Source of the DNA: Acinetobacter phage vB_AbaSt_W16
Reading direction: 5' to 3' (one strand)
DNA length: 64,000 nt
Sequence record: PP174317.1
The notes under the pieces are model-generated. The model saw only the letters and a list, made by a program, of their open reading frames with translations. It was not told the origin of the DNA and did no database searches. Of the stretch, positions 27,230 through 27,303 are shown piece by piece. Both the position numbers and the translations under genes were made by a program. The first letter of the stretch is position 1. Each line of letters begins with the position of its first letter.

Positions 27230-27303
27230 TGGTCGTTCAGGACGGATTCGAACCGTCACACAGAGTTTTAGGGACTCCTGGTCTACCGTTAACCTACTGA
27301 ACG
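27230..27303 (-). tRNA. tRNA with an apparent CUA anticodon (amber-reading, suppressor-like); short D-arm; C at position 33
   Basis: Acceptor CGTTCAG/CTGAACG+A+CCA, anticodon arm GGAGT-CCCTAAA-ACTCT, T-arm GACGG-TTCGAAT-CCGTC. Confidence 0.5.

Follow-up and report, generated by a model that had tools for sequence, protein, structure and literature searches.

The window analysed here is a stretch of 64,000 nucleotides (nt) from the Acinetobacter phage vB_AbaSt_W16 (sequence record PP174317.1), and the element in question is a transfer RNA (tRNA) gene with the anticodon CUA on its minus strand, at positions 27230..27303. With a probability of roughly 0.6, this is a genuine tRNA gene, the same as ZZ1t008 of phage ZZ1, which belongs to a set of CUA tRNAs under purifying selection in the Twarogvirinae, and its product acts as a partial amber suppressor that is charged by the host and whose benefit is diffuse.

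The gene is 74 nt long, encodes its CCA end and has A73 as the discriminator. ARAGORN reports a “tRNA-Pyl” with anticodon cta at 27230-27303(-), “Pyl” being the name that this program gives to any CUA anticodon. The Rfam model RF00005 matches 27233-27303(-) over model positions 1-71 of 71 with 59.6 bits (E 2.9e-11; gathering score 29), the alignment flags zero non-canonical pairs, and the score ranks third among those of the eight tRNAs in the cluster. In ViennaRNA the cloverleaf is both the minimum-energy and the centroid structure. The sequence is parsed as CGUUCAG UA GGUU AACGGUA GACC A GGAGU CCCUAAA ACUCU GUGU GACGG UUCGAAU CCGUC CUGAACG A CCA, with an acceptor stem of 7 base pairs (bp), a 4-bp D-stem, 5-bp anticodon and T-stems and a variable loop of 4 nt; all 21 stem pairs are Watson-Crick or G-U. 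The D-stem consists of G10-C25, G11-C24, U12-A23 and U13.G22 and closes a 7-nt loop that contains G18G19. Also kept are U8, A14, A21, the T-loop UUCGAAU (of the UUCRANY type) and the purine A37.

The anticodon loop of 7 nt reads C32-C33-C34-U35-A36-A37-A38. The anticodon C34-U35-A36 (27269..27271, minus strand; sequence position 33-35 in ARAGORN, and placed likewise by the Infernal alignment) reads UAG and is followed by A37-A38, and no alternative loop register with a sense anticodon is found in this tRNA. A preliminary description of the window had proposed a 74-nt minus-strand tRNA at this place with C-U-A at positions 34-36. ARAGORN, Rfam and the ViennaRNA fold bear this out and leave that register as the only sensible one; no predictor returns another anticodon or a pseudogene call. 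The description was also right about the acceptor stem, T-arm, anticodon arm, A73, encoded CCA and C33. Its D-arm needs correction, from a 3-bp stem with a 9-nt loop to the 4-bp stem and 7-nt loop given by the Rfam alignment and the fold.

The 8-kb neighborhood of the gene is 99% identical to the Acinetobacter phages Henu6 (at full coverage) and ZZ1, T4-like phages of the genus Zedzedvirus (Straboviridae, Twarogvirinae). The CUA tRNA sequence itself is 100% identical in both. ZZ1t008 shares genomic position and anticodon with the window gene, and the sole difference lies in the spacing to the neighboring tRNA-Arg, 93 nt in ZZ1 versus 6 nt in the window. The CUA tRNA is not new, because it is annotated in the GenBank record of ZZ1 (NC_018087) as “tRNA-Pyl ... 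possible suppressor tRNA; anti code:CTA” and is tabulated in the paper on the ZZ1 genome (Jin et al. 2014, BMC Genomics 15:793; PMC4177764). Table 2 of that paper lists ZZ1t008 as Sup(CTA), 74 bp, and gives Pyl(CTA) of phage Acj9 as its sole homologue; neither function nor C33 is discussed. The Acj9 gene (Acj9t18, NC_014663) is syntenic and 74-75% identical to the window tRNA. Phages DLP1 and DLP2 have likewise been reported with Sup(CTA) (PMC10051250). Thus, as an annotation, the gene is already known; a literature search found no functional study of it.

Syntenic CUA tRNAs are present in about 55 records of T4-like Acinetobacter phages that represent at least four genera. Carriers include Acj9 (Acajnonavirus), AbTZA1 and Minot (Hadassahvirus), AM101, Berthold and Kimel (Lazarusvirus) and AB1I1M-1, and in these the gene comes after gene 57B and two small open reading frames (ORFs), either first or second among the cluster tRNAs. 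Full-length copies detected by blastn are found in 3 ZZ1-type, 37 Lazarus-type and 11 Hadassah-type Acinetobacter phage records and in Acj9; AB1I1-type records also carry the gene. In a structural alignment of seven distinct CUA tRNAs from Zedzedvirus, Acajnonavirus, Hadassahvirus and Lazarusvirus, 144 of the 147 stem cells are paired (Watson-Crick or G-U) and 16 of the 21 stem pairs show compensatory double changes, and CUA, A37, A38 and A73 are invariant. Within the subfamily of ZZ1, Acj9 and AbTZA1, two pairs of the anticodon stem have undergone compensatory swaps, 28-42 (G-C/C-G) and 31-39 (U-A/A-U), with CUA kept, and the tRNAs of these three phages group at 72-77% identity in a global alignment against 86 tRNAs of eight related clusters. 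Since CUA is kept while the stem pairs co-vary, the gene appears, from this comparison of sequences, to be under selection as a CUA-reading tRNA.

The Lazarusvirus and Hadassahvirus genes, which are labeled Sup(CTA), tRNA-TERM or tRNA-Pyl (AM101, KARL-1, DLP1/DLP2, AbTZA1, Maestro), occupy the same cluster-head locus as the window gene and share with it CUA, A37-A38, A73 and, mostly, an encoded CCA. They differ from it in having the canonical U33. The body of the Lazarus-type tRNA is also different, with A1-U72, a GCUC/GAGC D-stem and a 5-nt variable loop. A metagenome scan added one member to the family, at 4414-4486(-) of L027 (contig Ga0315289_10012818), which displays a GGUU/GACC D-stem, a 4-nt variable loop, G1-C72, A73 and the loop CUCUAAA with U33, and does not encode CCA. 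The contig is 11.8 kb in length, tRNA-rich and mostly unannotatable, and its only match in PHROGs is one HNH endonuclease. A pattern scan of IMG/VR matched only Acj9 and AbTZA1 themselves, and a search of IMG/VR via 57B homologues gave no further CUA tRNAs. In AB1I1M-1 the CUA tRNA (L019 2994-3069(+)) is unannotated, and the 3′ strand of its acceptor stem seems to hold an extra U as a bulge.

Position 33 requires separate consideration. U33 is near-invariant in tRNAs according to the literature, and the preliminary description had rightly pointed to the C at this position (27272..27272, minus strand) as unusual. Comparison of homologues shows that C33 is specific to the lineage of ZZ1, Henu6 and the window: the loop is CCCUAAA in the window and CUCUAAA, with U33, in Acj9, AbTZA1, Minot, AM101, Berthold, Kimel/phi1, AB1I1M-1 and the metagenomic L027, that is, in every homologue compared. 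In yeast tRNA-Leu(GAG), C33 occurs naturally and does not substantially impair function (PMC13492127). The likeness is that of a functional elongator tRNA that bears C33; the yeast molecule differs in being a eukaryotic sense tRNA with no tie to suppression. Because C33 barely affects that tRNA, its presence here is unusual yet not disqualifying, and it may be regarded as a lineage-specific variant that may lower the efficiency of decoding and need not abolish it. Little weight should be given to its persistence, as it is found in just three records that are about 99% identical.

TAG usage was analyzed in the window and in the Henu6 and AM101 genomes. A simple ORF call in the window gives 64 TAA, 23 TGA and 5 TAG stops, and four of the TAG-ending ORFs are judged to be real. 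These are a truncated Seg-like gene (19785-20225, minus strand), an ORF of 50 amino acids (aa) at 25614-25766, a GIY-YIG Seg gene (26433-27095, minus strand) and gp15 (50713-51585), and readthrough would extend them by 16, 0, 8 and 2 codons, respectively. When TAG is read as sense across the window, no plausible longer gene arises. On this point the preliminary description, which had seen no TAG readthrough candidates in the window and had noted the small gain of the truncated ORF, was correct. The genome-wide stops number 179 TAA, 67 TGA and 14 TAG in Henu6 (260 ORFs) and 153 TAA, 77 TGA and 20 TAG in AM101 (250 ORFs); these counts come from a crude ORF caller, and two of the 14 TAG-ending ORFs of Henu6 are spurious. 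TAG is thus an ordinary rare stop that ends about 5% of genes, the rarest of the three in these low-GC genomes, and the ORF sets are complete under code 11.

Reciprocal tblastn searches with all ORFs of Henu6, AM101 and the window revealed no conserved gene with an in-frame TAG, and the few alignments that contain stops represent spurious antisense ORFs or stretches upstream of true starts. Backup stops are not enriched after TAG relative to TAA and TGA (Fisher p = 0.14 in Henu6 and 0.67 in AM101). Readthrough extensions after TAG are short and unconserved and do not differ from the ones that follow TAA or TGA. The TAG stops themselves are not conserved between Henu6 and AM101 orthologues: rIII, qacE and gp15 end in TAG in Henu6 and in TGA or TAA in AM101, and 61.1, rI, gp4, UvsW and DenB end in TAG in AM101 and in TAA in Henu6. 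Readthrough would add 3 aa to rIII and 25 aa to QacE. Only one gene, a Seg homing endonuclease, ends in TAG in both orthologues, and there the stop is made by U8-A9-G10 of the next tRNA. Because the tblastn, backup-stop, extension and orthologue-stop tests are all negative, stop-codon recoding and conserved programmed readthrough are not supported. The link to recoding or regulated readthrough that had been drawn in the preliminary description is likewise not supported, as the conserved genes of these genomes contain neither an in-frame TAG nor a conserved extension.

Two individual loci were considered and rejected. In Henu6 (MK240351, 88412-89221(-), L008), outside of the window, gp118 (99 aa) is followed in frame by TAG, three codons and gp117, a homologue of T4 61.1; suppression of the gp118 TAG would yield a fusion of 269 aa. 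The upstream gene is confined to the ZZ1 lineage, and the arrangement is treated as chance. The tail completion gene gp3 (29734-30300(-)) was considered as an amber-interrupted gene, but its ORF is intact, with a TTG start and 188 aa, and is identical to gp3 of ZZ1; the 102-aa fragment given in the Henu6 record is an annotation artefact.

As a partial suppressor, the CUA tRNA would be transcribed as part of the cluster and matured by RNase P and 3′-end enzymes of the host in the same way as the other cluster tRNAs, its CCA end being already present in the gene. A36-A37-A38 is the MiaA determinant, and a modification of the i6A37 type is therefore likely. Aminoacylation would be by a host synthetase, with Gln or Lys as the default and with A73 and U35 favoring LysRS. 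GlnRS and LysRS both read U35 and are the usual acceptors of CUA tRNAs, and A73 favors Lys; the basis for this is reportedly the suppressor series of Normanly, Abelson and Miller. The charged tRNA would then compete with RF1 at UAG and give partial readthrough. As the phage uses the standard code, the CUA tRNA would decode no in-frame TAGs and would serve no conserved programmed-readthrough target. Its benefit is probably diffuse, because the phage shows no target: it may lie in tolerating or “detoxifying” rare TAG codons, as in the pre-recoding state of Borges et al., or in perturbing the termination of host messenger RNAs (mRNAs).

Attempts to assign an isotype by similarity were not discriminating. 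In the alignment with 86 tRNAs the next-best matches are Asn, Ile, Gly, Met and Arg tRNAs at 64-71%, and a blastn search with the CUA tRNA against 5,426 complete E. coli genomes gave no match. Phages 133 and Acj61 lack a CUA tRNA and carry a 74-nt tRNA-Gln(UUG) with the same ACAGA/UCUG anticodon stem, 7-nt D-loop, 4-nt variable loop and U13.G22. A simple replacement of tRNA-Gln by the suppressor is ruled out, since AB1I1M-1 carries both the CUA tRNA and tRNA-Gln(UUG); overall similarity does not favor Gln either, and the idea was dropped as unsupported. The AM101 protein orf117 (L024 12111-12695(-), 194 aa, annotated as “histidyl tRNA synthetase”) was considered as a dedicated charging enzyme and rejected, as it has no homologue in the window.

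Several points weigh against a selected and active suppressor. The phage genome bears no trace of suppressor activity: backup stops after TAG are not enriched, and TAG is the stop of essential genes (gp15 in both Henu6 and the window; gp4 and UvsW in AM101). C33 breaks the canonical U-turn nucleotide, and a hairpin with a T-run lies directly upstream of the gene, with a decayed tRNA remnant nearby; a weakened gene could show all of these features. An independent acquisition or a replacement at the locus, instead of orthology, may account for the Lazarus-type tRNA, in which case the covariation argument would lose depth. The literature search produced no data on expression, charging or readthrough for the CUA tRNA.

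The upstream region bears on the first of the alternatives. The cluster (23735..27303, minus strand; ARAGORN, Rfam and the ZZ1 and Henu6 annotations) comprises eight tRNAs, with small ORFs and the Seg-like homing endonuclease between them, in the transcription order CUA, Arg-UCU, Met-CAU, Cys-GCA, Thr-UGU, Ser-UGA, Pro-UGG and Trp-CCA, so that the CUA tRNA is the promoter-proximal member. Its 5′ end is abutted by a GC-rich hairpin, CCCGC-TTTATTTTA-GCGGG followed by TTT (27307..27325, minus strand), which was found in a scan for terminator-like sequences and looks like a putative terminator or 5′-leader hairpin. In Acj9, AbTZA1 and AM101 the 5′ end of the CUA tRNA is abutted instead by the motif AAAAGTTACTTT(A/G)A, which in AB1I1M-1 abuts the 5′ end of tRNA-Trp (the motif lies at L002 ~4199-4212, L003 ~4987-5000, L006 ~4456-8470 and, in AB1I1M-1, L019 ~2900-2912). 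In the window this motif is located at 27470-27483 (minus strand), 165 nt upstream of the CUA tRNA, with a structured stretch (27326-27469) between it and the hairpin. The motif could act as a promoter, as a signal for processing or as the site of a homing endonuclease. At 27496-27590 (minus strand) there is a decayed tRNA-like remnant, in which 18 nt match, at 94% identity, the D-arm of tRNA-Tyr in Acj9, the gene that precedes the CUA tRNA in that phage. The remnant also holds the T-arm-like sequence GTGGTTCGAGTCCCAT and is called by neither ARAGORN nor Rfam.

Within the cluster, the Seg-like GIY-YIG ORF (26433-27095(-)) overlaps tRNA-Met (26368-26442(-)), such that its TAG stop is formed by U8-A9-G10 of the tRNA. 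The same type of overlap is found in AM101, with tRNA-Trp. Henu6 and the window share the Seg insertion, which ZZ1 lacks.

The gene of the ZZ1/Henu6 lineage could be a weakened or dying copy of a functional suppressor, nearly neutral after the U33C change and the upstream rearrangement, both too recent for the gene to have been lost. The restriction of C33 to this lineage, the displacement of the AAAAGTTACTTT motif with a terminator-like hairpin in its place, the tRNA-Tyr-like remnant just upstream and the lack of evolutionary depth among the three near-identical C33 records are all in keeping with such a history. However, the stems are all intact, the nucleotides of tertiary interactions are kept, and only two of the eight cluster tRNAs score higher in Rfam. 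With respect to Acj9 and AbTZA1, the anticodon stem shows the compensatory swaps noted above and a change from an A27.G43 mismatch to G27.U43, which would be unexpected under drift, and a natural C33 is functional in yeast tRNA-Leu(GAG) (PMC13492127). A dying copy is unlikely, if slightly more probable than the other alternatives.

Another alternative is a termination-control system, i.e., regulated readthrough of particular phage or host genes or an early stage of TAG recoding, possibly with the participation of a protein encoded nearby. This protein, mentioned here as context only, has 76 aa (22860..23090, minus strand) and a Pfam RF-1 domain (40.5 bits; cut-off 35) without GGQ: the RF1 sequence SGAGGQHVN is replaced by VGKH-SNWVN, and none of the six homologues aligned from Acinetobacter phages has GGQ. 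The RF-1-domain gene is located in or beside the tRNA cluster in every CUA-tRNA-bearing Acinetobacter phage examined. It is also found in phages 133 and Ac42, where the clusters lack a CUA tRNA, and therefore the two features are not obligately coupled; further homologues occur in small Pseudomonas siphophages (phage 73-like). Thus, of the RF1 mimic and termination control proposed in the preliminary description, the absence of GGQ is confirmed by the alignment and the connection to the CUA tRNA is weakened.

The rarity of TAG, the least used stop of these low-GC genomes, resembles the pre-recoding state of Borges et al. and would fit termination control, as would the in-frame gp118-TAG-gp117 pair of Henu6. 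On the other hand, the upstream partner of that pair is absent from other genera and the chance of an in-frame arrangement is 1 in 3; conserved genes show no in-frame TAG and no conserved readthrough extension, and the only stop shared as TAG by orthologues belongs to a homing endonuclease and is dictated by the tRNA that it overlaps. Termination control is therefore considered improbable. A version in which the CUA tRNA and the GGQ-less protein jointly reprogram UAG termination, the dead domain hindering RF1 and the tRNA decoding UAG on host mRNAs or in conditional phage products, with C33 tuning suppression or allowing escape from an anticodon-loop nuclease, would be slightly less probable again.

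A role other than suppression should also be considered, and is about as improbable as termination control. The tRNA could serve as a decoy or resistant substitute against a host nuclease that targets tRNAs, or C34 could be modified (e.g., to lysidine) such that another codon is read. Strong conservation in the absence of a detectable translational target in the phage would be accounted for in this way, phage tRNAs with altered anticodon loops are known to escape anticodon nucleases, and the gene lies in an accessory region, next to the 57B gene, which in AB1I1M-1 is annotated as an Acb1 anti-CBASS nuclease. We know of no anticodon nuclease that targets a CUA tRNA, however, and none was identified in this analysis. 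The loop CUCUAAA with A37-A38, invariant in the relatives, is that of efficient amber suppressors such as supF and those of the “extended anticodon” work, and if a modified C34 read TAA, about 69% of phage stops would be affected, which seems untenable.

That the gene encodes a pyrrolysine tRNA, in line with the label “tRNA-Pyl” of ARAGORN and GenBank, can be dismissed almost entirely: the CUA anticodon and the automatic label are all that favor it, and whereas tRNA-Pyl has one nt between the acceptor and D-stems, a small D-loop that lacks G18G19, an anticodon stem of 6 bp and a variable loop of 3 nt, the window tRNA is canonical, with two nt between these stems, G18G19, a T-psi-C T-loop and a 5-bp anticodon stem, and pylS and pylBCD are not annotated in the regions of Henu6, ZZ1 and AM101 that were read (by annotation only, with no hidden Markov model scan of all ORFs). 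The presence of “tRNA-Pyl” in many GenBank records is thus a naming artefact.

The partial-suppressor reading can be compared with known amber-reading tRNAs. The laboratory amber suppressors (E. coli supF and supE, T4 psu) are mutant alleles of sense tRNAs. They share the CUCUAAA loop with the relatives of the window tRNA, and the expected mechanism is the same competition with RF1 at UAG; the window tRNA differs in being a wild-type, conserved gene, and in having C33. Closer in setting are the Xanthomonas jumbo phage XacN1 and the Ralstonia phage RsoM2USA, which have orphan CUA suppressors, the standard code and no identifiable target. The likeness is that of a CUA tRNA in a lytic, standard-code phage, and in XacN1 an in-silico readthrough of amber stops found no target, as in the window phage. 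These phages belong to unrelated groups, and they are likened here by description and not by sequence. Standard-code relatives of recoded phages have acquired suppressor tRNAs (Borges et al. 2021/2022). With the TAG-recoded phages themselves (crAss-like and Lak) the window phage shares a phage tRNA(CUA), a low-GC genome and rare TAG stops, which fits the proposed pre-recoding stage; in contrast, the recoded phages have many in-frame TAGs in late and lysis genes, and none were found in the window, Henu6 or AM101.

Carriers of this gene or of its relatives, among them ZZ1, Henu6, KARL-1, AM101, DLP1/2, Maestro and AbTZA1, are therapy candidates against multidrug-resistant A. baumannii. In practical terms, gene callers need no alternative code for the window genome. 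The remaining interest lies in why lytic phages with the standard code keep a conserved, natural amber suppressor, an accessory function that lacks an explanation. If the tRNA is active, about 5% of phage proteins and some host proteins, those whose genes end in UAG, would be extended, and the gene would illustrate the “suppressor first, recoding later” step that has been postulated for how recoded phages evolved.

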